Source of the DNA: Eremomyces bilateralis CBS 781.70
Taxonomy: Eukaryota
Strand: one strand, 5' to 3'
Length of the DNA stretch: 20,000 nt
NCBI GenBank assembly: GCA_010015585.1
Contig: ML975164.1
Shown one piece after another: positions 1-19,966 of this stretch (its first letter is position 1; every line of letters starts with the position of its first letter). The notes beneath the pieces were generated by a model. That model worked only from the letters and a program-made list of their open reading frames with translations, was not told the DNA's origin and made no database searches. The position numbers and the translations under genes were made by a program.

Positions 1-1298
1 GATATTGCTACCACAGTCATCGATCTGGAAACTATCAGTCAAGAGCAAGGGTTCTAAGCACAAGCACACGCTGAATAGGGTGTGCTTTTAGGTTTGTTAT
101 ATTCAAGAACAAAAGGAGGTTCTACACAAGCATCACAACCACCCCCCGATCACTTCACTCTAGTGCGCATAATGGCTACCGCAGGCATACATCAGCACAG
201 AAAGGCATGATTGAATCAATGACATATGCCGGAGTACAGCCGATGCAGATAATGGCTGCCATTCAAAAGAAGGATCCGGACACGCTTGTCTCTGCCACCG
301 ATATTCGCAGCGAGGGGAAGGCAATTAGAGAGAAACACTTGAATGCGAGGAGTCCGATTGAGACATTACTAAGTGACCTGTCTACGCCGGAATGGGTCTT
401 CGCTATCAAGAAGGATGCGGATCATCATCCTTGTCCCGGCCTCTTTGAGAAGGTAAACGGTCTTCCATGTCATCATACGCTGCGAGATGTGATGAATTAT
501 GGATCAACGTTACGACTAGATCACCTTTACGACGACCATTGGCGCTATCAGCATAAGAAAGGACGGTCAATAAGCCTCTCTCTAAGGCCATATCAATATA
601 TCCTGGAGCCGCTTCCTGCTCAAACAAGAGGTGTGCCGAGGAGGAACGAGGTATCAACTCGTCGAGATCCATCAGCCCTTGAACGACGTGTACCACCTTC
701 TCTTCCTTAATCCAAAGACCAAACACTTGCTGAGGTCTTACAACACATAAACACCTCTGTCGCCGTGCCAATTCCTACATCTGCTCTACCTGCGAATGCT
801 ATAACTACTTCTATATCTGTGCCAATCCCTGCACCTGCTCCTATATCTTCCCCTGTCTCTGTTACTGTGTCTGCCACTATGGCTCGATCCCCTCCACAGT
901 CTGCCTAGAAACCTCCGTCGTTGGAAGAGTTCTTTACTAACATCGAGCGTCGGCGGATTTAGCCTATTCTGCATGACTGCAGTGATTTTAGTAGAGTATA
1001 GTGACCAATTTTTTGGCAGAGACAGGGCAAGAAAAGGACCCCACAGAACTGATTAAAGCACGGAATATGCTCTCGCTACATGCGAGGTATATGCTTCCTG
1101 TACTCCAATAATGGCATGGAATTATGACTTTGGAGATATGGAAGCGTCTACGCTGAAAGATTTGCACAAGTCAAGGCTCAAAATGCTCTTCTTGAGTCTT
1201 AGGATGTGCGCGGAGAGCGCCCTAAGCGCGCTGCAGCAGAGACTGCATCAAATGTTTGGAAAGGACTCGGTCTGCGCAAGAGACAGCTACGTCAGTAG
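1..1298 (+). mobile_element. Degraded, internally deleted Mutator-like (MULE) DNA transposase remnant
   Basis: HHNH motif near 130-145. ORF 207-710 has a MULE-type N-terminal region (SPIETLLSDL..EWVFAIKKD) fused directly to a SWIM-like CPGLFEKVNGLPCHH, so the DDE core appears deleted near 425. A P/S/T low-complexity stretch (770-900) follows, then a disrupted basic C-terminus (YAERFAQVKAQNALLES*DVRGERPKRAAAETASNVWKGLGLRKRQLRQ*, stop 1296-1298). The left boundary probably lies outside the window. Confidence 0.7.
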
Positions 1299-1329
1299 AA
1301 GATAGGCTTCATAATATGAGCAGCTATGA

Positions 1330-1570
1330 AGGTTCAAGGGCCGATTGCTAGAAGGCTTCCTGCAATAGTGAATAGTCCTTGGTAGTAACAATGAGGCCTC
1401 GCGAGGTCTTAAAAGGAGCTTCCGCAGATAATATCTTGAAAGGAGCTACAACAACTTTTTGAAGAATAAGAAGCCGTCTAATGAACATGATCTCGATACC
1501 CAGTTTATGTAATTATACCATGCTAGTAAGAATTGGGTTAGCGTTGGGGACAAATCTCACCAGCCTACCA
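1330..1570 (+). other. Structured non-coding element, copy A (homologous to about 18210-18490)
   Basis: Colinear blocks shared with copy C: TTCAAGGG, GGCTTC, AGTCC, CTTGGTA, AGTAAC, GAGGCCTCG..AGGTC, AAGGAG, AATTGGG, TAGCGTTGGGGACAAATCTCA. Hairpins 1334-1341/1375-1382, 1393-1399/1404-1410 and 1498-1506/1530-1538. Confidence 0.6.
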
Positions 1571-1597
1571 CAAATTTACCATTGCAAATCTTATAAA

Positions 1598-1944
1598 ATA
1601 GCTCCAGGAACAGCCTGCTTTTGTAGGATTTCTGTTGAACTAACGGACGATAAGCTTCTCCGAACCAAACTCATCAAGATTTTGAGATAGCTCTAGAAAA
1701 GCAAGATTAGAATATAGAGTAACCACGGTCTTAAAGGCGTTCCTAACACTGCCATGTTCTTTCTTCTTAGTACAAAGGTATGCCAGACTATTCTGGAAAC
1801 ACAAACTTCCGCCAGGCCTTTCCAACAATTTCTGCTCTTGAGGATCGTCAATCTATCTGCGCTCTTTTGGAATCTAACGGTGTTTTCCCACTGTGTCGCT
1901 GCATTAATCATCTGATTGAGCGAAACCGCTATTTACAACTGTGA
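1598..1944 (+). pseudogene. Possible RIP-degraded ORF of unknown function directly after element A
   Basis: ATA at 1598 (possible ATG>ATA) opens APGTACFCRISVELTDDKLLRTKLIKILR*, with in-frame TAGs at 1688, 1694 and 1715. A protein-like continuation in another frame (NFRQAFPTISALEDRQSICALLESNGVFPLCRCINHLIERNRYLQL*) ends at 1944. No family recognised. Confidence 0.25.
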
Positions 1945-2382
1945 GCAAACGGTCTACCTATCCCTTCTGCCTCAGGCCGCAAGGCCATACCACACAGACT
2001 GGGCGAAGCCTTATCTCAGCTTGGGCTCAGGCGGTATCCAAGCCATGACCCTGGTTATGCTAAACCATAACCAGATTAGCCCCATGTTTAGCGTGAAATT
2101 CACTCAGCTGACTGCAACTGTCTTGGGTACCGTCTGAGAAACTCGTGCAAAACCTCAATAGACGGGTGCATGGCGAGATGTAGTAGAAATGACGAGATGG
2201 CGAATAACATCATACGGTAAAGTTGCGCGGGCTCCAAAAGTTGATGAAATATAGATAAGGGTTTGTTAAACCGTCCTATGGCTTTTAAATATCAATTTGC
2301 TAACTGTTTAATCTATAACTAGAGTTTTAAAACTACTTGTCGTGTCGTTATACGTGAAAGCTCAATCTCCAGATCTGCCTCC

Positions 2383-2978
2383 ATGCGAGTGAAGCGACGG
2401 CAAGGTCGCTCTTATCAGCGTGAAACCTCCCTATACCAGAATCCAGCCTCTGTACAACCATTTCCTATCGAGAAAACAACTGAAGAACGGATATCCATAA
2501 TTGCAACGACACCAGAGAAAGAGTTATGCTCGGTACTGCAAGATCTAGTCAAGACATGTCTGATACGAAAGAACATCAAATACCAGCATGATCTTACATT
2601 CCATGGTTTGCAGCGACTCCTGGGTGGCCGGCTCCCACGTATCAACCGGGTTCGGACTCTTCAACAAATTGTTTTTCGGCATGGGGATACTATTGTCTCT
2701 GCTCAGACTGGTTTTGGGAAGAGCATCATCTTTTATGCTATCCCAATCTTTATCGGCAAAATTGCCATCCAGTTGATCCCTTCAAGCAAGCTTGGAGAGG
2801 AGCAGAAGAGGTCAGGCCTTGCCTTGTTACAGCGGAGACCAAGCGCACGAATCCGAACCTGTTAAAGGAGATTGCAGCTGGATTATACACCCATATCTTG
2901 ATGAGTCCTGAGCAAGCAGTTAGCGACGAGTTTCATGATTTGCTGTCAAACCCTAGTGTCAAGGACGTAGACACGTAG
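2383..2978 (+). pseudogene. RecQ-like (SF2) helicase N-terminal fragment, frameshifted and truncated
   Basis: Motif I GDTIVSAQTGFGKSIIF and motif Ia-like IQLIPSSKLGEEQ in ORF 2383-2865. After a frameshift near 2812 another frame reads RPCLVTAETKRTNPNLLKEIAAGLYTHILMSPEQAVSDEFHDLLSNP (RecQ motif Ib-like SPE) and stops at 2976-2978, before any DExH motif. Confidence 0.75.
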
Positions 2979-3249
2979 TGATGTTGTCTCGAATACGTGC
3001 ATTGTACTACGTGTGAAAGATAATATTAGTACAAAGGAGGAAGATCCATCAAGCGGAGTCTTCCTGATAACTTTTACAAAGCACGTAGACGTTGGTCATG
3101 TGATGTCATGTGATATCATAACCGGCCAATGTCTGAACCGTGACGGACTGTAGAGTGGTTGGATTGGCCCTAAAACTTGATGAAATGTAGAAGTCAACGT
3201 GTAGAATCAATTTCTGATAACAGATTAGCGATAAACATTCAGTATCGAG

Positions 3250-4075
3250 TACGCTTAGCGATGGGAGTTCCCTCACCTATTTCATGATACGATCTTTCAC
3301 GCATCCACATAAAGTCTGTAGGAGTCTCTCAGACGGCAGTCGTGCCTCCTGCCTTTATAGCATATGATTGGTCAATATTTAGTGGCGCATGCTAAAAAAG
3401 ATGCTAGGCTTCAATGGGTATAGCGGAGCCTCATATTGGCCAGGGGGCACGATTGCCGGCTGAGTCCCAACTGAGATAAGCGAAGCCCAAGACTGTCACA
3501 AGAACTTGTAGTTACTTGGCGAGTGATTCACTTAAATGCCCATATGTCAGTAAATGTTCATTTAGGTGTAGTAATTGATTAAGATTTAATGATTAAGAAT
3601 TCGAAGATAGGGCATTAGATTTGCATTGACTTTGCAGCTATAGCATTAGGAAGCACTCTGCGTATGGCTACAGGCAATCTAGGTTGTAGGGATCGGGGGA
3701 CATTATAACAAGGTAGGACCTGTGCTCCGGTGGGGGATGAATTATGTACTGGGATCCTTTGTAGTAGTTAGGCTAAGTTAAGCTCTAATGGCACGGAACC
3801 GTTAGTTAAGTAGATTTTCTACTGATCTTGATTGAGATTTAAATATATCTAATTTATCTAGCTACAAGGAGCATCATGCTCTCGAGTCCCAAATATAATA
3901 TAATCCCCGTACGGAGCACAATTCAGTATTATTGGGCTATAAGACACTTTTTCATGTGAAAATAAGAATGCATCTTCTTCATGTGAGAATGAGAATAAAT
4001 ATGTTATAAGATGGCTGGTACTCACTCTGACCTAGGGGGTAGACTTTTCTCTATTATGACTTAAGAGCCGTATCC
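3250..4075 (+). other. Large structured non-coding region B upstream of the lipase
   Basis: 18-bp stem 3334-3351/3441-3458 (2 G.U) extended by CTCAG/CTGAG. Nested stems 3371-3378/3433-3440 and 3406-3412/3425-3431. Long interrupted hairpin 3721-3729/3912-3920, 3733-3738/3903-3908, 3750-3754/3887-3891, 3755-3764/3862-3870. Further stems 3535-3541/3610-3616 and 3484-3490/3932-3938. Confidence 0.55.
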
Positions 4076-4106: not shown

Positions 4107-5391
4107 ATGCTGCTTCTTTCTTTTGTTCCTCTGGGACTTGCGTCCCTTTCTTTCGCGTTTCCAGTCACTGAAAAGGCTGACTTAAGCGTTCCTGGCGTGT
4201 ATGTTACCGATACATACATAGACCATCTTGGAATTAAAAGGCAAAACAGTAAGGCCATCAGTTCGGAGCTCCACGATAGGCTCGTCTATTACTCTGAATG
4301 GGCTACGGCAGCATATTGTTCTCCGCAACAGGGCGAGACTGGGGGGAAAGTGTCCTGCCAAACTTCTAAGACATGTGGTCGTGTCGAGAAGTCTGACACA
4401 AAAATCTATAGCACGTGGCTCAAGTAAGTGGTCGCCCCAGTGAGTCTTAAAACTCTAACGTGCTGGTTTAGCATTGGCAACAATTCAGCCACCGGCTTTG
4501 TCGCCGCCGACCATACCACGAAGAACATTATCATCTCTATGCGCGGATCCGTAGCCTTGGCCAATTGGGTAGCCGACCTTAAATTTTTCCAAACGGAGTG
4601 TGTTGACGGATCAGTCGTCATAGGACCGGGCTTTTGCAATATTGGATTCTTGGGGTTCTGGCAGCAATCTAGGGAAGCCGCAGAGGAAGGTCTTGCGCAG
4701 GGATTGCAGGAAAACCCAAGTTATAATATCGTCATCACCGGCCATAGTCTGGGAGCAGCGGCTGCCGTGTATGGAGCCAGTTATCTCCGCCAGAATGCCC
4801 AGTATAAGGACAAGATAGTGGAGTCGGTATGATATCCCCCCCTTTCCCCTCTATAAGACCTTAAACTGACACCATATGTCTTAGTTTTCGTACGGGCAGC
4901 CTCGAGCTGGAGATGAAGCATTTTCAAAATTTGTCACTGCACAAGGGAATAATTATCGCGTCACCCACACTAGCGATGCCGTCCCAAAGCTGCCTCCAGA
5001 GAGTGGAATTCAGGGCACGCTTGGCTTTGAAACATACAGCCACATTGCTCCCGAGTACTACATTTCGGACGGCTTGGGCATGAACATCAACAATATTCAC
5101 GTCATCGACAGCGGATCTAGCAACGAGGGTAACGCTGGTACAGGCCAGTTGAAGTTCAATATTGTTGCACACATCCAGTACTTCCAGAACAACATGTACT
5201 ACTGCGTTTTACCCCTACCTGATCTAAGCAGTATAGGTATAGGTTATCCAGATGGGACGAAGAGGAGCATCGATACCCTCGATGCTAACAGGACCATCAC
5301 AGATATCGATGATACTGTCAATAGGATCCTCGATGAGAGATTTGGACCGGACATATGGGGAACATCTTCTTTCGAGCCTTTTTTGCAGTAG
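4107..5391 (+). CDS. Secreted class-3 lipase (Lipase_3 / feruloyl-esterase-like), 392 aa; exons 4107-4423, 4472-4826, 4885-5391
   Basis: Signal peptide MLLLSFVPLGLASLSFA, propeptide ending in KR, and motifs AAYC, RGS..LANWVADL, TGHSLG (nucleophile), YGQPRAG, RVTH..DAVP (Asp) and AHIQYF (His). Introns 4424-4471 (gtaagt..ctaac..tag) and 4827-4884 (gtatga..ctgac..tag) join three ORF-track fragments in frame. Confidence 0.93.
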
Positions 5392-5674
5392 TATCACCTA
5401 CTGTGACAGTCTTGGGCTTTGCCCAGTCTGTGTGTTGTGACCTCGCGGCCTACCATAAGGCAGAAGGGAAAGATGTAAAATAGCAGATCGCAGTGAGAGA
5501 GGTCTTTTTCTTTTCTCTTTAGCAAATCCACAGCATTTCAGCTATATTAAATCCTTAGTGGTTTGAGCCTTCACGATTTGATTTTGCTCATTTCTTCCGA
5601 AGAAAGCTTGCTTATACTGATATCCAAAATGGCTTGAACGGATGGATGTACGTCGAAACTAGCAGTTGAGCGAA

Positions 5675-5731
5675 TAATTTCCATCATTACTAGCGCAGGG
5701 GGAAAATCTCACGGGGGGGAGGGAAATCTCA
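5675..5731 (+). repeat. Diverged third copy of the TAGCG..GGGG..AAATCTCA motif
   Basis: 5691-5711 TAGCGCAGGGGGAAAATCTCA matches the 21-mer at 1539 and 18461 at 17/21 positions. The preceding TAATTTCCATCATTAC (5675-5690) matches TAATTTCCATTATTAC at 18442-18457. GAAATCTCA recurs at about 5723-5731 among G-runs. Confidence 0.6.
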
Positions 5732-6657
5732 AAAACGGGGGGGAAAGTGTCGCAAGATGCCCCTGTTGGTTTCTACTGCCCTAACTTTCCTTTCACTGCC
5801 CATTACCCCTAGGCTAGGCCTATTTCGGACAGCTTAGTGTTTTCCCTTGTATTTAGTTATCTTCAACTGTTTTGCTAGCTAGATCTCCTTTTTGGAGAGA
5901 CAATGGGAATCGTCAAGGCCAACTTGCGTTGTGACTCTACAGCAACTGAGCTAAAGAAGCAAACGTGCTTAATCATCACCCACGCGTGATGCGACAGAAA
6001 GTCTCACCAGCCTTATGAAACCGTGTCTGATACCAAACTGTCTGTCGATGCATTTGATTGGATGTTGAAATACGGAATACGAGGTAAGTGGCTGGTCTGG
6101 AAACGGGATACCTTAGGCATCTTGTCGCACGTGATGTGCTAAAATGGTTCGGAGTGAGGTGCTGTTGTTACAGCAGCGAAGTTGTTTGTATTGTGTGTTG
6201 TGTGTAAGTTGTGTGTTCTAGCTGAATGCCTGGTCCCCCGGACCTACAGATATACGAGAGTCACGGCAAGATTATTAATGCAGTTTGTAGCCTTGGACTC
6301 CTAGAACTCATGCCTTGGCCTGCGACACATCTCTATCCTGAATGAAGCCGTTCATTGCCCAGACCTTGATAAATATACATCATTATTGGTTCCGCATGGT
6401 CTCATCATCTGCTCGTTGTTGAGTCTTTGGTTTCAAACTTTTTTGGATTTCCTGCCGTCCTTGATTATTATACCTGCTGCTCTCTTCCCTAAGCCTTTGA
6501 TCCGTTCGCCAATTGCCCAGAATAGCAAATTGCTATTACATCGTACACATCTACATTCAACAGCAGTAGTTATTCCCATCCCAATTAGATAATAATCATC
6601 TCTCCAGCTCATCTATCCATAAAAATCCATACTATCAAACCCACCCCCCCTCTCCCA

Positions 6658-7749
6658 ATGCACGTCCTCTGGTCCCTCATCCAACCCACCCTCTCCGCCC
6701 TCTCCCCCTCCCCCCTTCCCTTCTCCCTCCGCTGGCGCCTCCTCATCTTTCAACCTCTCACCGCCCTCATCTTCACCTTCAAAGCCCTCCCCTGGATCCT
6801 TACCCCCAACTCCTACTCCGTCCACCACCTCCCCACCCGCGCCAAACACTCCCTCCGCACCCTCGCTTTCCAGCCCCCATCCCGCCCCACCCCTGACTCC
6901 CGCCTTCGCCCCCTCGTCCTCCTCATCCACGGCGGCGGCTTCGTGGGCGGCCTCCCCGACATGCTCGCGGAGTTCGCGCAGACGATCGCAAGAAGGACCG
7001 GCGCTGTCGTTGTCGCGCCGACGTATCGCCTTGCGCCGCGGTGGAGGTTCCCCGCGGCGATTGACGATGTGGATGATGCGGTGAACTGGGTGGTGGAGAA
7101 TGCAGAGAAGGAGTGGGGCGCGGATAGGAGGTGCATCACCGTGTGTGGGTTGTCGGCGGGAGGGAATTTGGCGTTCGCGACGAGTTTGGGGAGGAGGGAG
7201 GTGAAGGGGTTGGTGACGTTTTATGCGCCGGTAAGTCTGATTTTGCTTAATAGCTCCGTATCATGTTTGGTTGATGATTGGGTATAGGTAGATTTGCGGT
7301 TACATCCTAGGGCGAAGCCTCGCCCGGACAACTTTCCCAAAAGCGACCCCCTGGGCTTCTTGCAAGAGTTATATGATACGTATGCGTCTGATGCAAAAAA
7401 AGAGTGCCCCGAGGACCCGAGATGCAACCCGATTTTCGCGCCCCTGGACGACCTTCCGAGGAATATCTTGCTGCAAATACCGAAGATCGACATCCTTCTG
7501 CATGAGCAAACCGTCTTCGTGGAGCGCTTACGCAACGAGGCCCGGGGGAGAGGCGAGCTTTTAGAGGATGGAGAGGAGGATTTGGAGGGGAATAAGAGAA
7601 GGATCATGGCGAATTTCTATGAGAAAGGGTTTCATGGGTGGGTGGAGTTGTCAAAGACGATGGTGGATCAGGAGAGTTGGACGATGGCCACGGAGAGTTC
7701 GTTCGACTTCATTAATGAAGTCAATGGAGCGAATGGTTATGCTTTTTGA
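6658..7749 (+). CDS. Alpha/beta hydrolase (Abhydrolase_3, hormone-sensitive-lipase-like esterase), 344 aa; exons 6658-7230, 7288-7749
   Basis: HGGGF oxyanion motif, YRLAP..FPAAIDD, GLSAGG nucleophile, KIDIL (Asp) and GFHGW (His). Phase-0 intron 7231-7287 (gtaagt..tag). Confidence 0.92.
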
Positions 7750-9728: not shown

Positions 9729-11451
9729 TGCGGCGTGCAAATAGAGGGAAATGTTGGTCGTTAATCGTAGCAGAATCCAGCCAAAGACGTAGCCAGAGTT
9801 GAGCTTCGGTGGGGACACCAACTAAAGGATTGGGTACATATGAGCAGGTCAGAAGCTACAGGTACTTATGCCCATTCGTCCTGGCGATGGTTCATAATAT
9901 TCATGAAGTATGAAGATGAAGAGTTCAAGATGGAAGTACCATGCTGTAGCGTAGCAAAAGCAGTCTAACCCGTAATGGCAAAGCACACGTCATTCATACT
10001 TGAATTGGATTTTGATATTACAATATTCGATGGTGTGGTTTAATTAGCGCGTTTATTCCCTTACGACTTTTCCATCTTTGTTCTTTCCTCTAATCCGTAA
10101 ACTCTCCCCATCTAATTACATATTTTCGAAAGAATTGCGAAATCTCCTCTCCGTCCACGTTCCCGCCCTTCGCCTCCTTCACCCTCCTCGCCTTTCCTTG
10201 TGCCTTTTCCCAACGGGCTCCTGTCACCGAATCGCTCCCCCTACTCGCTCGCGCATGACTGACACGACTCCTCTCCCACCTGCGACTAGCCTCTGCCGCA
10301 ACAGAAGGGACAGAAGGGCCGGCCGCGGTGACCTCGAGGCATTTGAAGACCGGAAGAACGTGTCGATAAGCATCGTGTGCCAAAACCAAGCCGGCTTGGA
10401 GAGTAATCGGGATAATTATAGAGGGTGAGGTGAGCAGGGCGGCAGAGGTACCGGCCGTAACCAGTCTAAAAACTCCACAATCAAGGGTTCCTAGTTCGAC
10501 GAAGGATGGAGGATAATATTTCTATTTCTATTTTCGCGCTTATTATAAATAGAGTCAACCAGAGTCTTATAAGACATTGCTTCAAATTTAGAGGGCGTAC
10601 AGCGCCCGTTGGCCGCCGGAATGGAAAGGTAGTTGATGCTCGCTTTCGACACGGTGTTGTCGAATGGTCTTGGCGTTAGCTCCGCCCTACCTTTGCAGCC
10701 GACAGCTGCTCTCTAGCAGTGGACAGCAGCAAGGCAGGAGTGTTGATTGGCGAGCTTTGCAAATGGATTCGCTACTTGAGGATGAACCTCATCTGGGTAC
10801 TTCGTACAGACATGAACTCACTCCCAGGCGTTCGCATGCCCACGTACAGAGCAACATGCGCCAGAAGAGAGCAACAACCGGCAGCTAACAAAACTTAACC
10901 TCGCGACTCCAAGCTCATGTCAGGCAGCACTCAACTCATTAGCGGTGTGTCCGCCAACCAGAATTCGCAGGTTGTAGCTGGCACTATCCATGGATCTGTG
11001 AACTTTGGGAGCAGCGAAAGTGAGAGTGCTTAGTTGGCTGTGGCCTCAAAGCAGCAGGAAGCTGACTGGCAATCTAGACTTGAACGATGTGCTCAGCTCC
11101 CTCCCCACCTCAGAGGACGCGCCGTTCAATACATACCAGCGACAACCCGACCCGGCCTGCCTTCCCGATGCCCGCGTTGATCTCCTTCAAAAGATCTACA
11201 TCTGGGCTGATGGCCGAGACGAGCGCTGTATTTTCTGGCTGAACGGCTTGGCCGGCACGGGCAAGTCGACAATTGCGCGCACTGTCGCCCGCAGGCGCTT
11301 CGATGAGCAGCAACTCGGAGCCAGCTTCTTCTTCTCGCGTGGCGGTAGAGATGTCAACCATGCAGACAAGTTCATCACGAGCATTGCGTGGCAGCTGGCG
11401 AACAACATACCCTCTCTCCACCAGCACATTTGCGATGCCATCATAGAGCGC

Positions 11452-11523
11452 CGCGACATTGCGAGTCAGTCCCTCCGCGACATTGCGAGTCAGTCCCTCC
11501 GCGACATTGCGAGTCAGTCCCTC
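11452..11523 (+). repeat. Perfect 24-bp tandem triplication (RDIASQSL x3) inside the NACHT domain
   Basis: CGCGACATTGCGAGTCAGTCCCTC at 11452, 11476 and 11500, followed by CGTGAC. Confidence 0.97.
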
Positions 11524-12960
11524 CGTGACCAGTGGCAGCAGCTTATCCTACGTCCACTATTAAAGCTAGGTGAAAACGGCGGCCAGTCCTCGTACACGTC
11601 GTTGATGCGCTCGATTAGTGCGACGGTGACAATAATATCCGGATTATCATACACCTCTTGGCTGAAGCTCGATTATTAAAGACGGTTCGACTACGAGTCT
11701 TGCTGACCAGCCGATCTGAGATTCCAATCCGATATGGATTCCGTCAGCTACCGAATGCGAATCTCCAGGATATTGTACTTCACGGCATATCACCCTCAAT
11801 CGTAGATCACGATATCTCTGTTTTCTTCGAGTACAATCTTAAGCTCATTGGACAGGAGCACTCTCTGGATGACTCCTGGCCAGGCGAAGAGATTATCAGA
11901 AGCCTGATCCAGATTGCAGGGGGATTGTTCATTTGGGCCGCAACCGCTTGTCGGTTCATTCAAGAAGGTGTTTTCGCAGACGAAAGAGTGCAAACTTTGC
12001 TAGAAGGCAGTACCTATATTCCTGCACAGGAAGAGCATCCGGAAGTACAACTTAATAAGCTCTATACTACCGTCCTAAAGGAATCTATCTGGTCAGGTTA
12101 CTCAGCAAAGGAGAAGGAAGCATTATATGGCATGCAAAAACACATTCTTGGAAGCATCGTGGTTCTCTTCTCCCCGCTCTCTACCAGCTCGCTTCACAGG
12201 CTGCTTAATATCACCAAGCAAAGGATCGATCAGGTGCTCAGGGAACTTCATGCGATTCTAGATGTCCCCAAGGTCGGCATATATCCACTTCGTCTGCATC
12301 ACCCTTCGTTTCGCGACTTTCTCCTCGACAAAAAGAGATGCGGAGATACAAATTTCTGGGTAGACGAGAAGGAAGCTCACCATATGTTAACCAACAGCTG
12401 TATCCAGCTTATGTCGTCATCACTCAAGCAAGATATCTGTTACATGGATGCCCCCGGTATGCTTGTAGTCAATATCAAAAGAAGCCGAGTTGAACAATGT
12501 CTTCCTCCTGAAGTCCAGTACGCATGTCTTTACTGGATCCAGCACCTCCAGAAAAGCGGTGCTCGACTTTGCGACAATGATCAAGTACATCAATTCTTAC
12601 AGGAGCATCTTCTTCACTGGCTCGAGGCCCTTGGATGGATGGGGAAGCTGTCGGAAGGAGCTCATGCTATCGCATCTTTAGAGCTGTTTACTTCCGTCAG
12701 TATGCCTCTAGTACGTCAAATACATTCGCTGACACCTCGGTTAGTTAAGTAATTGCCCTGGTATTTCAAGCTTCATCTATGATGCGAAGCGGTTCGTCCT
12801 CTATAATCGGCCAGCTATCGAGCAGGCTCCCTTTCAGACGTACTATAGTGCCCTCGTATTCGCACCGACAATAAGTATAATAAGAAAGCAGTTCGTAAAC
12901 TATATACCTAGATAGATACGAAATTTGCCAATGGTCGAGGAGAAATGGAATGCGGTAATA

Positions 12961-13212
12961 CAGACGCTCGAGGGCCATTCGAACGGGGTCAACGCCGTGG
13001 CCTTCGCGCCGGACGGCAAGACGCTGGCGTCGGAATCGTGGGACCGGACGGTCAAGCTGTGGGACGCCGGGTCGGGCGCGCTGCAGCAGACGCTCGAGGG
13101 CAATTCGAGCGGGGTCAACGCCGTGGCCTACGCACCGGACGGCAAGACGCTGGCGTCGGCATCGGGCGACGGGACGGTCAAGCTGTGGGACGCCGGGTCG
13201 GGCGCGCTGCAG
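12961..13212 (+). repeat. Two 126-bp high-internal-conservation WD40 repeats
   Basis: 12961-13086 and 13087-13212 differ at 8 of 126 nt by my count. They are visibly more GC-rich than the flanking coding sequence. Confidence 0.95.
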
Positions 13213-13816
13213 CAGACACTCGATATTGTAAACATCGTCTACGCTCTCTCTTTCTCCAATGACGGTACCTCTCTCCAGACGGACCGTGGATCCTTACCTA
13301 TTTTATCGCCTCTCTCTGATGGTATAGGTGTGACCAGTTTACAACATCCATCTTCTATCTTTGTCAATGACCACTGGGTGAGTAGCCATACAGAGCGGAT
13401 TCTTTGGCTTCCTCCCGAGTATCGGCCACATTGCATTGCCGTGTATGGGGGTATTGTTGCTTTCGGATATATCTGGAAGAGTTATGACCATGGAATTTAC
13501 TTTATGATATTTCCCTAAGCTTTATTTAACCTCCTCCCTGCCCACCTTCCTTACACATGGTGTCTTTTATATACTACATGAATAGCACGAGTGGCGGCAG
13601 CCGATGAGTAATGTTTGATTAGAAATCTAAAGGCTTTAAAGCCTGATTGGTGCTAGTTAACTATTATTGAGAGTGTTAAGAAATAGTGCCTGTCCCTAGG
13701 CGTCTCCACTGCTTGCTGCTCAGGCGTTGCTGCTGTGGCGTCAAGGTGTGGCGGAGGTTGTAAATACCGTATGATACGATAAAGACGTAATATCTGGCGA
13801 CATTTCGAAACAAAGT

Positions 13817-14614: not shown

Positions 14615-16417
14615 TTAATACGTCCTGGGTTCCAACAACGTTCGTCCCACTGGCTTCACATTTTCTCCAAACCCTTCGGTCCTCGAATGGATTTTTCGCC
14701 CTCGGAGCCAAGTCTCCTTCACGACGCCCTTCAACTTCAACCCTTCGTAAGGTGAGCATTTATTCCTGAAAAGCATCGTAGAATGCTCGACCTGCTCTCA
14801 GCGTTAACGTCCCGTCGATGCAATTAAGCTGCTATTGCGGCCAAAACTTACCGTGAATTCTCCACAATCGTCAAACACTGCGACGTCCCCGTCATATCCA
14901 ACCGCCAGATCCCCCTTCTTCCCCAACAATCCCACCTGCTTCGCCGTGTTCCGACAACACCACTCCACCACATCCTCAATCCCGACGTCCCCGCCCCGCT
15001 TCTGCGCCTCCGTCCACAGGATCGGAAGACCCAGCCCCACGCTACTAATCCCGCCCCACGCCGCGAAAAAGTCGCCGCGATCCGCCACCTCCGCGCTTGC
15101 GTTGCCCTCCCGCACCACCGCTACCTCCGTCACGGCGTCTGCGTCCTCGGAACTGGCCGGGGACGGACTCTCACTGCCGGACACGCACCCTGACGCGCTA
15201 TCGCTCGCGTCGCTGTCGTTGCCGCAACACCCTGACACCACGCACGCGGACCCGCCGGCCACGTTTGGCGGCAGGATCTTTAGGTTGGGTGTACAGGGCG
15301 AGTGGTCCGAGACGACGGTCTTGATGACGCCTTCCGCGGCGCTCCTCTGTAGCTCATCCCACAGGACGTCCTGGTTCGCCTGCTCGCGGATGGGCGGACA
15401 ACACTTATGACGAGTGTCACCATCAGCGATCTCTTCGGCAGCGAGGCTGAGGTAGTGGAAACAAGTTTCGGCGGTGATGTTGATGCCGTCGGCGCGGGCG
15501 GCGCGGAGGATTGGGATGGCTTGGGTGGCGGAGAGGTGGACGATGTGGAGGGGGAGGTTGGGGGCGAGGTGGGCGAGGGAGACGATCTGTTCGATTGCGT
15601 AGGTTTCGAAGGAGGGGGGGCGGGAGTCGAGGAAGGTGCGGTAGGCAGTGAGGGAGCCGGTGGGGGCGAGGGGCGGGAGGGATTGTTGTACGTCGTCGCC
15701 GACGGAGGCGGTGACTGGGGGAATCATCTCGGCGTGGAACATGGCGGTGGTGGGTTGGTCGGCTAGCTCCTGGAAGGCTTTTGAGATGTCTTCGGCCGAG
15801 ACGGCGGGGAATTCGGGGACCTGATATTGGGTTAGGAATCACGTGAGGCAAGACGAGGCGTGAGGAGGAATACTCACACCACTGTCTATTAAGAAGCCTT
15901 TGAAGCCTCGAACTCCGGCCTTCACGAGTGGAATAAGTTCCTTCTCATTGCCAGGGATGATACCTCCATAAAACCCAACATCGACCCAGCACTTCCCCTG
16001 CGCGGCATCGATCTTTTCCCGGAAGCCATCCACGGTCGTAGTGGGCGGGATAGCGTTGAGCGGCATGTCGACGACAGTGGTGACACCACCGAAGGCCGCG
16101 GCGCGAGTGCCATGCCAGAATCCTTCCCATTCCGTGCGGCCGGGCTCATTAAGATGGACGTGAGCATCGACAAGGCCGGGGATGAGGATGTGCGGAGAGT
16201 GGTCGACATATGGAGTGCCGGCGGGGAAATAGGTCGGAGGTAAGACGGAGTGGAAGATACTGGAGATTTTCCCGGTGGCAGTGCTGATGACAATGGTGGC
16301 CTCAGTTAAGCGGCCATCCACTACAGCCCGTGACGAAGCTAAGACTGTGACAGGGGAAACGGGTGGCGGTGATGATGATGGGATGTCCGAAGCGGTCTGG
16401 TAGGTAGTGGAAGCCAT
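14615..16417 (-). CDS. DAL1: Allantoinase, 561 aa; exons 16417-15878, 15820-14852, 14791-14615
   Basis: Motifs [97 protein letters not shown] and RNKCSPYEG. Phase-0 introns 15877-15821 (gtgagt..ctaac..cag) and 14851-14792 (gtaagt..cag). Confidence 0.96.
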
Positions 16418-16424
16418 ATTGAGG

Positions 16425-17240
16425 CTTATCGTCTTTTACGATTGGCTGAGAGCCTTGTGCAGTGTGCACAATAGGCCGAGAGCCAGTTGCGGAGAATAAA
16501 TTGCCCTATAGAAATGCCCAAGGTCGGCAAGTAGGTGTATACGTGAATACTCAGAGCGGCAAGAAACGGACGAAGCTGATTTGCCGGCGAGCAACTGATA
16601 AGTAGACAAAGGATAGATAAGAGATGTCGCAGCTCGTGTCAGTCCAGACCGGTTAGTGAGCGAACAAGAAGACTCAGATATTGAACGAAAGAACCTGAAA
16701 GAACAGCGAGGGTAACTGTTGTAGAGATCGAAGAACAGCAGAAGGAAAGAAACGGGAAATCCGGGGTAAGTGGCGCTTCTTATCTACAAACTAGGGACTA
16801 AGCATGCATCTTGGTATACTACTTTAAACGGTCCTCCTCCTGAATCGGAGTGGGTCTGATCTATTTTGCAAAATGCAAGCAATAAGGAGAACGCCAGAGG
16901 ATAGGTTCTAGGCCTGTATGTATGCTGTGTAGCCCTGCCGACAGGGCCGGCGATGCAGTGGGTTAGGTCTCGGACGTTCCAGAAGCATCCTAGTACAGGA
17001 CAGGAGTTACTCGATGGAAATACTAGGATGGAATGCGACGTTGAGTTAAGCAGGAATGAAAGCAGAGACTAAGTTAGAGAGTATGACTAGTTGACTACAG
17101 TGGCTCTGCGGGCGTTGGTAGTAATACGGTGGGCTAGTCAGCTGAATAGGCGGGAGTGGATGAGGATGTTGAGACGAGATGACGAGAGCAAGTCCAACGT
17201 GGCGATAAGAGGCGATCCAGGATAATTCGGCTATTACCGT
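16425..17240. promoter_or_regulatory. Allantoinase upstream region with GATA (AreA/NIT2-type) sites and a near-consensus UaY/PCO1-type site
   Basis: GATAAG or CTTATC at 16425-16430, 16597-16602, 16616-16621, 16779-16784 and 17204-17209, and GATAAT at 17221-17226. TCGG-N6-CCGT at 17227-17240 (consensus TCGG-N6-CCGA). Confidence 0.55.
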
Positions 17241-17409
17241 AGATTACAGTACGCTAAAATGGATGCGCACAGCGGGATTCGTTCTTTGTTAGCATTGTTT
17301 CATTCCGACGCCATCTTAATTGGCCACCCAACCGTTCGAATTAATTCTCTTTCGACAATCGATATTGAGACGAAATTCCTTGCCCCGCGCTCGCAACTGT
17401 GACACCACT

Positions 17410-18490
17410 TCAAGTCCCTTAAACGTCCCTGTTTGGTGTTCCTGACCCTTTACCATGATCCAAACTTCAAAAAGGGTCCAGCTGCCCAGGTTGTGCAGCA
17501 TGATCCTGCGGAATGATGCGCTGTGCAAGGGGCTGATCCGATGCGAATTGCCCAGTCAAAATTGGCCTCAACCACGGTCGAGATTCGGCCGTCTCGGAGT
17601 GATCAGCTATGAATCAACATTCGGCACAGGCTCCTTGCTTCAGTTTGCTTGCAATTTGGGATCGGCCGCTGGTTGGGAAACGGGACGCCCAGTATTTTCT
17701 TAGGAGCGTCCCCGTCGACTAACTTGTTCCCATATTTGATATTACTCGATATGATCGAGCAAACGATTGCACTCTCGCAAGTCGCACCCGGTGCTGTTTC
17801 CGACATCACGAATTCCGGAAGATCTCCCGCCAACCCCCTGTTAGCCAATTGGGGTTCCATTTAATAACGACCAGATTTATCAGCGACTGTCGGAGGTGGC
17901 CGGCGGTGGGTTTGTTTGCCGGTATCCGTCAATACGAAACTCCCATCAATCACCTTGCTTATGGCTGTGCTGGCGCAGCTGGGCGGCATGTGAGATCACT
18001 GAGAGCAAGCCGTTACGAGATGCCGATATGCACCCTTCGAAGCGTGTCTAGCCGACATCGTCGACCCTGCGATTGGATCCGACGAAGTGTCTGGCCTCAT
18101 GATTACTCGATTAGTGTGACATATGCCCATTTCTATCGAGTAATAGAAACTGAAAATCGCCTGGGCGCGAATCGTACGAAAATTCTTCTTGGCTTTTTTA
18201 TGTTCGGAGATTTCAAGGGATATCTTAGGTAACGGCTTCGTTAAGTCCCGCTTGGTACCAGTAACCCTATGGATGTAGGAGAGGGGGAGGTCCAATATCC
18301 CCCATACCTGATGCTTCTGGTATCGATAATCTGAACGAGGCCTCGAAAGGTCAGCAAGGAGTGTAAGGCCTTATGATGCATTGCGAACCGTCACGAGGCT
18401 GCTTTGGGAAATCATGCGCTAGGTCAAATTGGGAATTTGATTAATTTCCATTATTACTACTAGCGTTGGGGACAAATCTCAGCCTTTTCA
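17410..18490 (+). ncRNA. Candidate large structured RNA element, copy C, ending about 60 nt before the HET ATG
   Basis: Nested helices 17631-17639/18353-18361, 17640-17646/18147-18153, 18202-18208/18330-18336, 18254-18261/18317-18324, 17793-17805/17888-17900, 18051-18063/18080-18095, 18102-18111/18135-18144, 17532-17538/17601-17607 and 17574-17581/17585-17592. Crossing 10-bp helix 18007-18016/18229-18238. No credible ORF. Homologous to copy A. Confidence 0.55.
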
Positions 18491-18544
18491 CATATCAGCT
18501 TTCCTTAGCTGAACTCGTGGTATTCGTCCATAACTTCAGCAACA

Positions 18545-19756
18545 ATGTCTTCCGGCGTTCCGCAGAAATCGACAACTTGGATCGACCATAATGTTAAACC
18601 AATGGACTGTGGTTTTCGATACGATGCTTTGTCACAGGAGAAGTCTTTTCGACTCCTCAAGTTGCTTCCGTCGTCCGATACCTCGTCTCCCATTATCTGC
18701 ACCATGTCTGAGCAGCGCATAGACGACTCAATTAAGAAGTATACCGCGCTCTCTTACACATGGGGTAACATACAGGATAAAAAAGAAATCATCCTGAATG
18801 GCCGTCCGGCTCTTGTCACGCAGAACTTGCATATGGCGCTCCAACAAATTCGTCATATGCCTGGAATGCTTGGAGCTATCCTTCAACCCCTTTCCCTCTG
18901 GATTGATGCTCTCTGCATAAATCAACAGGATAAGAATGAAAAGGCTGTCCAGATTGGGTACATGCATCAGATATTCGCCAATGCTCAGTGGGTTGTAGCG
19001 TGGCTAGGGCCAGAAGGAGATGAAAGCGGGGCAATAATGGACGTAATCAACCAGGGAAACTCCATTGATGTGGGGTCTATTCCGGCTCCCGCTCTGCTGT
19101 CATTCTTAAGTCGATCATGGTGGACAAGGGCCTGGGTTCTGCAAGAGTGTATGGCAGCATCAGCAGCATCATTCATGTGGTTGGTTTGCGGATCGTCGTC
19201 CACCGCCTTTATACATGTTTTCGCCTTCATCAACGAGGTGTTAATGTACATTGATAGACAGTCGTACTCTATCGGGCGGACGACACTGCGAGAGGCGTTA
19301 TCGTTCCGGTGGCACCTCTTCATGAACCTTGAAAGATACCAGAAAGAGCAAGGCATTCCCCTCTTCGACATTATAAAGCTTTCCAGCAAGTTAGAGGCTA
19401 CAGATTCGAGAGACAAAATATTTGCACTCCTGGGCCTTGTCGATGGCCAAACGAAGTCCCAAATACGGCCGGACTATACCTTATCCCCCTGCGAGATCTT
19501 CTGCAAAGCGATCCGAGTCATGGCGAAGGATACGGAAAGGTCCTCCAATATTCTTAAGAAAATTAAGGACTTTGAAGATATTAGAAACAGAGGTCATCAG
19601 CCATTGATAGAAAACGTCCATGAGCGGCTGCAGTGTGATGGGGTTGCTTGCGCTTCTAAGTATCTATGCTTTGATCTACCCAACTGGGTTAGTGGTGATG
19701 TACCGGATCTCGTTGGTTATTTCATCATGGGTCTCCAAGATCCGAAGACAATATGA
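18545..19756 (+). CDS. HET-domain (heterokaryon incompatibility, HET-6-like) protein, 403 aa, intronless
   Basis: FRLLKL, YTALSYTWG, VTQNLHMAL, LWIDALCINQQDKNEKAVQIGYMHQIFANA..VVAWLG, WWTRAWVLQE, ATDSRDKIFALLGL and PDY. Confidence 0.95.
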   Translation: MSSGVPQKSTTWIDHNVKPMDCGFRYDALSQEKSFRLLKLLPSSDTSSPIICTMSEQRIDDSIKKYTALSYTWGNIQDKKEIILNGRPALVTQNLHMALQQIRHMPGMLGAILQPLSLWIDALCINQQDKNEKAVQIGYMHQIFANAQWVVAWLGPEGDESGAIMDVINQGNSIDVGSIPAPALLSFLSRSWWTRAWVLQECMAASAASFMWLVCGSSSTAFIHVFAFINEVLMYIDRQSYSIGRTTLREALSFRWHLFMNLERYQKEQGIPLFDIIKLSSKLEATDSRDKIFALLGLVDGQTKSQIRPDYTLSPCEIFCKAIRVMAKDTERSSNILKKIKDFEDIRNRGHQPLIENVHERLQCDGVACASKYLCFDLPNWVSGDVPDLVGYFIMGLQDPKTI

Positions 19757-19929
19757 GATGATAACAAATGAGGCCGATCACCTACCCGCTGCAGTACACA
19801 GTTTATGTTGACATGGCTGTCTTCAACGACAAGCTATTGTCTTGTTTCCAACCTGTGTGGAACTTGATGCCTCAGGCATCAAGATCCTTTGATGTTTGCG
19901 TGCATCAGTAGCGGAACTTGCAGGGGCCA

Positions 19930-19966
19930 ATCAACGGTGGATCAACGGTTGAATGGAATCAACGGT
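19930..19966 (+). repeat. Short imperfect repeat, ATCAACGGT x3
   Basis: Copies at 19930-19938, 19941-19949 and 19958-19966. Confidence 0.8.

Follow-up and report, generated by a model that had tools for sequence, protein, structure and literature searches.

Genes, repeats and shared motifs of the locus

The window, i.e. the whole stretch of 20,000 nucleotides that was analysed, opens with a dead and internally deleted MULE transposase gene (1..1298, + strand), the 5' part of which lies beyond the window edge, and contains near its other edge a single-exon HET-domain gene (18545..19756, + strand; PF06985, E 5e-29). HET orthologues of 401-403 aa show 76% identity to this gene at 100% query coverage, and because they cover 100% of the ORF the ATG at 18545 is taken as the true start. 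A single-copy lipase_3 gene (4107-4832) is flanked by inverted repeats at 1974-2034, 3456-3500 and 5402-5451, and a degenerate DEAD/RecQ-like helicase fragment is situated at 2383-2865. An NLR-type gene with NACHT/NPHP3_N and WD40 regions occupies positions 11005-13518 and includes two 126-nt WD40 units with 94% identity (12961-13212) as well as 24-nt tandem repeats (11451-11529); contigs of this gene contain joints adding or dropping repeat units, and many paralogous copies of it were found.

DNA contigs of the organism's runs X1 and X2 may themselves be the source of the window and are thus not independent of it. Their summed depth over 1-1334, the transposase gene included, is about 20-40 times the single-copy level and reaches about 20-130 times over 1-4002 and 5337-6670, while the bin containing the element in front of the HET gene is at only about 2 times. 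The regions 1566-4002 and 5337-6670 are multi-copy in these contigs, and single-copy DNA contigs break at 18334-18357. Run X3 was taken as RNA-like on account of two CT..AC joints (3213/3277 and 14789/14850) present in X3 alone and of a depth over single-copy genes that varies from 0 to about 9200; RNA is not the recorded material of any of the runs. A 63-nt CT..AC intron is contained in one RNA-like contig (2983-3427). Another X3 contig extends without gaps from 16272 to 19935 at a depth of about 1300 and covers the element in front of the HET gene together with the HET ORF; it also takes in the start of an amidohydrolase gene and a 2.1-kb intergenic region including the ORF 17849-18232. Such contigs give neither the strand, the ends nor the level of a transcript, nor do they demonstrate that the covered stretch is one transcript.

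In the first-pass annotation, a non-coding element next to the transposase stop (A) was considered a structure-conserving homologue of the element in front of the HET gene (C). By direct reading of the window, all the short strings on which this comparison was based are present in both elements: TTCAAGGG (1333 in A, 18212 in C), GGCTTC (1354, 18234), AGTCC (1374, 18244), CTTGGTA..AGTAAC (1378-1389, 18251-18265), the block GAGGCCTCG(CG|AA)AGGTC with 14 of 16 positions identical (1393, 18337), AAGGAG, AATTGGG, and the exact 21-mer TAGCGTTGGGGACAAATCTCA (1539-1559, 18461-18481). A repeat search (families D6 and D18) added a third, diverged copy (B) at 5672-5711, reaching about 5745. All three copies of the motif in the window are on the + strand.

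The similarity of A and C is clearly above chance only in their terminal part, which consists of the 21-mer and the adjoining 20-40 nt or so on its inner side. At a tolerance of up to 3 mismatches, the 21-mer has 2 matches in the window against 0.00 expected, and two or more were seen in none of 200 shuffles. Local alignment of 1300-1600 with 18150-18520 gave a score of 42 (18.3 ± 2.1 in shuffles), and the 21-mer is the sole significant alignment between these regions. When it was taken out and A 1300-1538 was compared with C 18150-18460, z fell between 2.2 and 3.3, with 7, 0 and 1 of 200 shuffles equalling the real score under three scoring schemes. For the block-rich segment 1327-1443 against 18150-18420 the corresponding numbers were 9, 6 and 19 of 500 shuffles, and when the same segment was compared with 270 window tiles on both strands, the C tile was tied second, behind an unrelated coding tile at 11881. 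The 16-mer GAGGCCTCGNNAGGTC was found at 1393 and 18337 only in the 20 kb, although at least two occurrences were also reached in 4 of 200 shuffles. The proposed homology of the two elements holds for the outer 45-60 nt or so; the resemblance of the hairpin-bearing inner blocks (1333-1408 and 18212-18352) is marginal, slightly above chance level (p about 0.01-0.05).

A terminal inverted repeat and its relics in the window

Metagenome contigs were scanned with a slightly degenerate pattern of the 21-mer, and the loci were taken with 700-nt flanks. Nine loci with the 21-mer were obtained (L001-L009). Seven of them have three tandem TTGGGGACAAATCTCA units, spaced 18 and 21 nt, with the 21-mer as the first, and the third unit is followed by (C/G)(C/T)AGCC, or by CAGC in L004. 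Beyond this short sequence nothing is common among the nine loci, and the abrupt loss of similarity places the terminus of an element there. The two remaining loci, L005 and L008, have one unit and lack a transposase within 700 nt; the one-unit form of L005 closes in CCAGCC, as in A.

The loci with transposase sequence fall on both ends of the gene. Five of them (L001, L004, L006, L007 and L009) have, directly inside the motif, 66-78% DNA identity to window 720-1316 in the same arrangement as A. Their coding sequence covers aa 604/742-798 of transposase P0026 (800 aa), i.e. its last 57-195 residues, up to aa 797-798. In L002 and L003 the motif has the opposite orientation relative to the gene, aa 1-185/190 of P0026 are encoded, and the transposase ATG is situated 127 nt (L002) or 142 nt (L003) inside the 21-mer. 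The presence of the same 66-nt block at both gene ends in inverted orientation identifies it as a terminal inverted repeat (TIR); this was established across separate copies (five loci for the 3' end, two for the 5' end) and not within a single complete element. The TIR core of about 66 nt consists of TAGCG, three direct TTGGGGACAAATCTCA units and (C/G)(C/T)AGCC. Inside it there are 20-45 nt more, which are less conserved and end-specific, so that the subterminal sequences of the 5' and 3' ends of this MULE family are distinct.

Relatives of the transposase provide the class of the element. The L002 ORF has 39 related proteins, most with PF10551 (MULE) and PF21056; they include Alternaria proteins of 800-943 aa, which bear the names 'FAR1-related' or 'MULE transposase domain-containing', and Macrophomina and Paraphaeosphaeria contribute shorter ones. 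The window copy aligns with such PF10551-carrying relatives with E down to 4e-62, and by its transposase, as by its TIRs, the family belongs to the MULEs. For the FAR1 domain PF03101, the N-terminal 195 residues of L002 and L003 scored 19.2 and 23.0 bits, under the cut-off of 28.1. A Pfam search of window 207-707 gave no SWIM match and no match at all; a C..C..C.H-like stretch, PCPGLFEKVNGLPCHH, was spotted by eye in the three-frame translation. Judging from these sequence data, the block containing the 21-mer appears to be the TIR of a Hop-like, FAR1-type fungal MULE.

Two side observations concern the TIR itself. The variant unit GGGGGAAAATCTCA, in place of the 14-mer GGGGACAAATCTCA, is common to L008 (701-721) and to copy B (5691-5711) and may be a marker of a TIR sub-family. 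Just inside the first 16-nt unit of both end types there is a pair GCGCTAG ... CTAGCGY (1520-1545, 18413-18467 and L001-L009). Its loop measures about 9 nt in the 3' ends and some 37 nt in the 5' ends; the pair is conserved in sequence and shows no compensatory changes.

Scans with the 16-mer gave at least 120 loci in prokaryote genomes and 7 in viral contigs, each with one short match and no further similarity to the MULE; the longest match was 53 nt at 79% identity, and the others were 19-33 nt. One prokaryote contig (L128) contains an imperfect tandem array of roughly 50-nt units with TGAGATTTGTCCCCAA repeated nine times. It was rejected as a relative, being a bacterial array without similarity to the MULE beyond the 16-mer.

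Copy A was compared by tblastn with the full-length relatives P0018, P0026, P0019, P0027 and P0029. Two segments align with the 800-aa relative, window 3-428 with aa 49-196 and window 426-1295 with about aa 501-797; the deletion between them has removed the catalytic MULE domain (the PF10551 part), in-frame stops are visible in the three-frame translation, and the conserved stop TAG is retained at 1296-1298. The 3' UTR or subterminal region (1299..1507, + strand) was delimited by alignment to the five related 3' ends, in which 116 columns are occupied by A alone: the segment 1327-1443, containing the hairpins and most of the blocks shared with C, is missing in all five and is thus copy-specific. 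In the nearest relative, L009, homology picks up again at about 1441 (701-834 against 1559-1441 at 76%). The 3' TIR of copy A (1508..1565, + strand) reads TGTAATT..GCTAG..AATTGGGT, then TAGCG, one TTGGGGACAAATCTCA unit instead of the three in relatives, and the terminal CCAGCC at 1560-1565; past 1565 (± 1-2 nt) the similarity to all relatives ceases. Element A (1299-1565) is accordingly the 3' UTR and 3' TIR of a dead, non-autonomous MULE. The alternative mentioned in the first-pass annotation, namely a terminal or UTR sequence of a MULE abutting the transposase stop, is borne out by the data: the 21-mer is located at MULE gene ends in seven of nine loci, and copies do sit at MULE ends as TIRs as regards both position and inversion.

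The copy-specific segment of A could have another source within the same family. Template switching during gap repair could lengthen a TIR, and 1327-1443 would then have been copied, in inverted form, from the subterminal part of the 5' end of some member of the family, making the inner blocks of A and C homologous; this would refine the explanation of A as a MULE end and not replace it. The segment is indeed an insertion relative to the closest relative, its colinear blocks match the 5' region of C at p about 0.01-0.04, and the 14/16 block is confined to these two places in 20 kb. Furthermore, TIR length in MULEs varies between 14 and 500 bp without regard to phylogeny, according to the review PMC6446971. 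On the other hand, the C tile was outranked by unrelated coding sequence, and 1327-1443 resembles the 5' ends of L002 and L003 only at chance level, with best local matches of 8-11 nt. Besides, A 1302-1321 aligns to a site of L003 that MAFFT pairs with C 18247-18266, about 70 nt off register with the inner blocks, and a DNA contig over 791-1424 has single-copy depth. We consider this origin unlikely. Comparison with the window and with L002 and L003 gave no source for 1327-1443, and the simple TIR model does not explain the slight excess of the inner A/C blocks over chance unless the 3' UTR of this copy acquired sequence of a 5' end.

Copy C is of the opposite end type. Its outer part is a 5'-type TIR (18420..18484, + strand) composed of GCGCTAGG..GATTAATTTCCATTATTACTAC, TAGCG, one TTGGGGACAAATCTCA unit and GCC, a shortened form of (C/G)(C/T)AGCC. 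The subterminal sequence GCGCTAGG..GATTAATTTCC.. is typical of 5' ends and common to L003, L005 and B. Local alignment of C 18410-18449 with L003 has a score of 25, which 1 of 200 shuffles equalled, and the comparison of the upstream regions of C and L003 gave z of 3.5-4.5, equalled in 0-1 of 200 shuffles. Further inside, between the TIR and a relic ATG, lies the decayed 5' leader of the transposase gene (18306..18419, - strand), which includes the GAGGCCTCGAAAGGTC block at 18337-18352. The relic start of the transposase ORF (18267..18305, - strand) was recognised by translation and by matches to N-termini: the minus strand reads ATG GGG GAT ATT GGA CCT CCC CCT CTC CTA CAT CCA TAG, that is, a start codon and 12 codons in all, MGDIGPPPLLHP, followed by a stop. 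The matching place is taken by MDDIAPPPDLLY in L003 and by MEEIESPPNILC in L002, and the ATG of C lies at the distance from the TIR that these two loci predict: its spacing from the 21-mer is 155 nt, against 142 nt in L003 and 127 nt in L002. The N-termini of P0002-P0005 match window 18305-18276 weakly, with E 2.8-5.2. To the left of 18267, tblastn with 39 N-terminal queries gave scattered matches (E 0.16-10) and no colinear series, and since transposase sequence is not recognisable further in, copy C (about 18267-18484) is interpreted as a truncated MULE 5' end comprising the TIR, the leader and the start codon.

Copy B is a degenerate solo end (5665..5745, + strand), recognised by the repeat search and by alignment to the loci. 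In it, GAATAATTTCCATCATTAC and TAGCG are followed by three units in decayed form, GGGGGAAAATCTCA, GGAGGGAAATCTCA and GGGGGGGAAAGTGTC, the two beyond the first being decayed forms of GGGGnnAAATCTCA. B and C have 43 nt in common with a score of 41, which was equalled in 0 of 300 shuffles. Positions 675-722 of L005 match 5665-5712 at 83%, and 679-750 of L003 match 5669-5742 at 72%. These alignments point to B as a decayed solo TIR of the 5' type. It is embedded in a multi-copy repeat, other copies of which diverge at 5402 and 5780 (7 contigs each); the boundaries of this repeat are not formed by MULE TIRs.

The position of C raises the question of whether the 21-mer originated as a host cis-regulatory motif, e.g. 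a transcription-factor site, and not as transposon sequence. The outer terminus of C at 18484 faces the HET gene 60 nt ahead of its ATG, and the RNA-like contig spans both. However, in seven of the nine outside loci the motif borders a MULE transposase gene at one of its ends, and both orientations occur, which refutes such an origin; A is placed after a dead transposase gene and not ahead of a gene, and MULE-specific sequence is found just inside the motif in all three window copies. This explanation can be given hardly any probability at all. We conclude that A, B and C are very probably relics of the ends of one MULE family of filamentous ascomycetes, and that A and C resemble one another because of the shared descent of transposon ends and not through selection for an RNA fold. 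The HET gene is a neighbour of the MULE element and lies outside it.

Evidence on RNA structure

According to the first-pass annotation, A and C would be members of a diverged multi-copy family of structured non-coding RNA (or ssDNA) whose stems are kept while the sequence drifts. It is true that hairpins of 5 bp can be placed in A, C, L002 and L003 at positions that roughly correspond. However, the hairpin segment of A is the very one that is absent from all five related 3' ends. The CTTGGTA..AGTAAC block of C and the first hairpin there (18225-18265) lie just inside the relic ORF, in a stretch that MAFFT aligned to N-terminal codons of both L002 and L003; the blocks at 18212-18265 are within or next to what remains of the sequence for the transposase N-terminus, which is encoded on the opposite strand. 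The small hairpins of L002 and L003 are within an intact transposase ORF, at codons for E-A/V-Y-x-x-L-K, and by eye they are shifted by 1-2 nt relative to one another.

Long-range complements with the hairpin loops were also reported. The strings are real, pairing 10 of 11 positions in A (1349-1359 with 1470-1480) and 10 of 10 in C (18229-18238 with 18007-18016). They are reached by 9 of 200 shuffles in A and 3 of 200 in C, the choice of regions being uncorrected in both counts; moreover, the partner follows the hairpin on the downstream side in A but precedes it, upstream, in C.

The folding calculations, covariation and Rfam lend no support to a structured RNA. The fold of A has z of +1.16, with 184 of 200 shuffles at least as stable, and that of C has z of -1.47, with 19 of 200. 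In the consensus fold of six 3' ends compensatory change was observed in 0 of 20 pairs. Against column shuffles, alifold gave z of -2.07 for the 3' ends as given and 0.03 for their reverse complement; the three 5' ends had -1.88 (about -1.9) in the given orientation and -2.6 when reverse-complemented. RNAalifold applied to C, L002 and L003 yielded a structure in which both partners have changed in 13 of 43 pairs, and none of 500 pair shuffles and no slide did as well. This one result in the opposite direction has little weight: the structure comes from the very sequences on which it was tested, three in number and poorly alignable, which inflates these measures. A search of Rfam gave no match in the window at gathering thresholds and none at E up to 1 in 1250-1650 and 17950-18560. 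Summarizing these data, the structured-RNA explanation is largely refuted and, in our opinion, very improbable, and the description of A, B and C as MULE ends is retained below.

Possible functions of the ends and comparison with known MULEs

The three window copies are inert relics, but their parts can be interpreted by analogy with active elements. The three 16-nt units would be binding sites of the transposase, probably contacted through its N-terminal FAR1/WRKY-like zinc finger, which would position the enzyme for excision. Where a single unit is present, as in A, C and L005, deletion between direct repeats would be the simplest explanation. By analogy with known MULEs, the TIR region may also hold the promoter of the transposase gene: PMC6446971 states that the TIRs of MuDR/Mu-type elements contain this promoter. 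It is also conceivable that the MULE 5' end at 18267-18484 has been co-opted into the promoter or 5' leader of the HET gene; we regard this as unlikely. If it were true, the co-opted end would set the expression of a candidate non-self-recognition gene.

As a result of this analysis, a candidate new family of structured RNA is removed and replaced by a precise description of fungal MULE ends, which can be used for masking and annotating copies in related genomes. A TIR with three TTGGGGACAAATCTCA units (14-mer GGGGACAAATCTCA) was not found in the papers searched; Repbase or the supplements of PMC6446971 may include the family. The region between multi-copy DNA and the HET/NLR genes carries old transposon insertions, as is typical of such loci. 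The MULE relic 60 nt ahead of the HET gene is a mild lead only, and the value of the results is otherwise mainly in annotation.

Target-site duplications of 8-11 bp are a defining trait of MULEs. Copies B and C and the loci L005 and L008 resemble solo TIRs or MITE-like derivatives in being ends without a transposase in reach; they are unlike a two-ended MITE, since an inverted partner of the motif is absent anywhere within these 20 kb. The maize MuDR/Mu system is similar in its cut-and-paste mode, its long TIRs and its tendency to land near the 5' ends of genes. MURA binds within Mu TIRs; the TIRs of MuDR/Mu carry transposase-binding sites, whereas those of the present family are putative. The maize elements differ in belonging to another clade, in the unrelated sequence and length of their TIRs (about 215 bp) and in having a second gene, mudrB.

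The closest likeness is to the Hop-like MULEs of ascomycetes (Hop/Jittery clade), Hop being a MULE of Fusarium oxysporum. Common features are a single transposase ORF of 800-943 aa with PF10551 in relatives, a putative FAR1/WRKY-like N-terminal region, an ascomycete host and gene-adjacent insertion. In PMC6446971, a bias of MULEs to insertion close to genes is reported, FAR1 domains are given for half of the members of one sub-group of Hop's clade, and TIRs of 85-99 bp are given for another, ascomycete sub-group, compared with about 66-110 nt in the family described here. A difference is that the window copies are dead: an internal deletion has deprived one of its catalytic domain, and the other two are ends in solo or truncated form.
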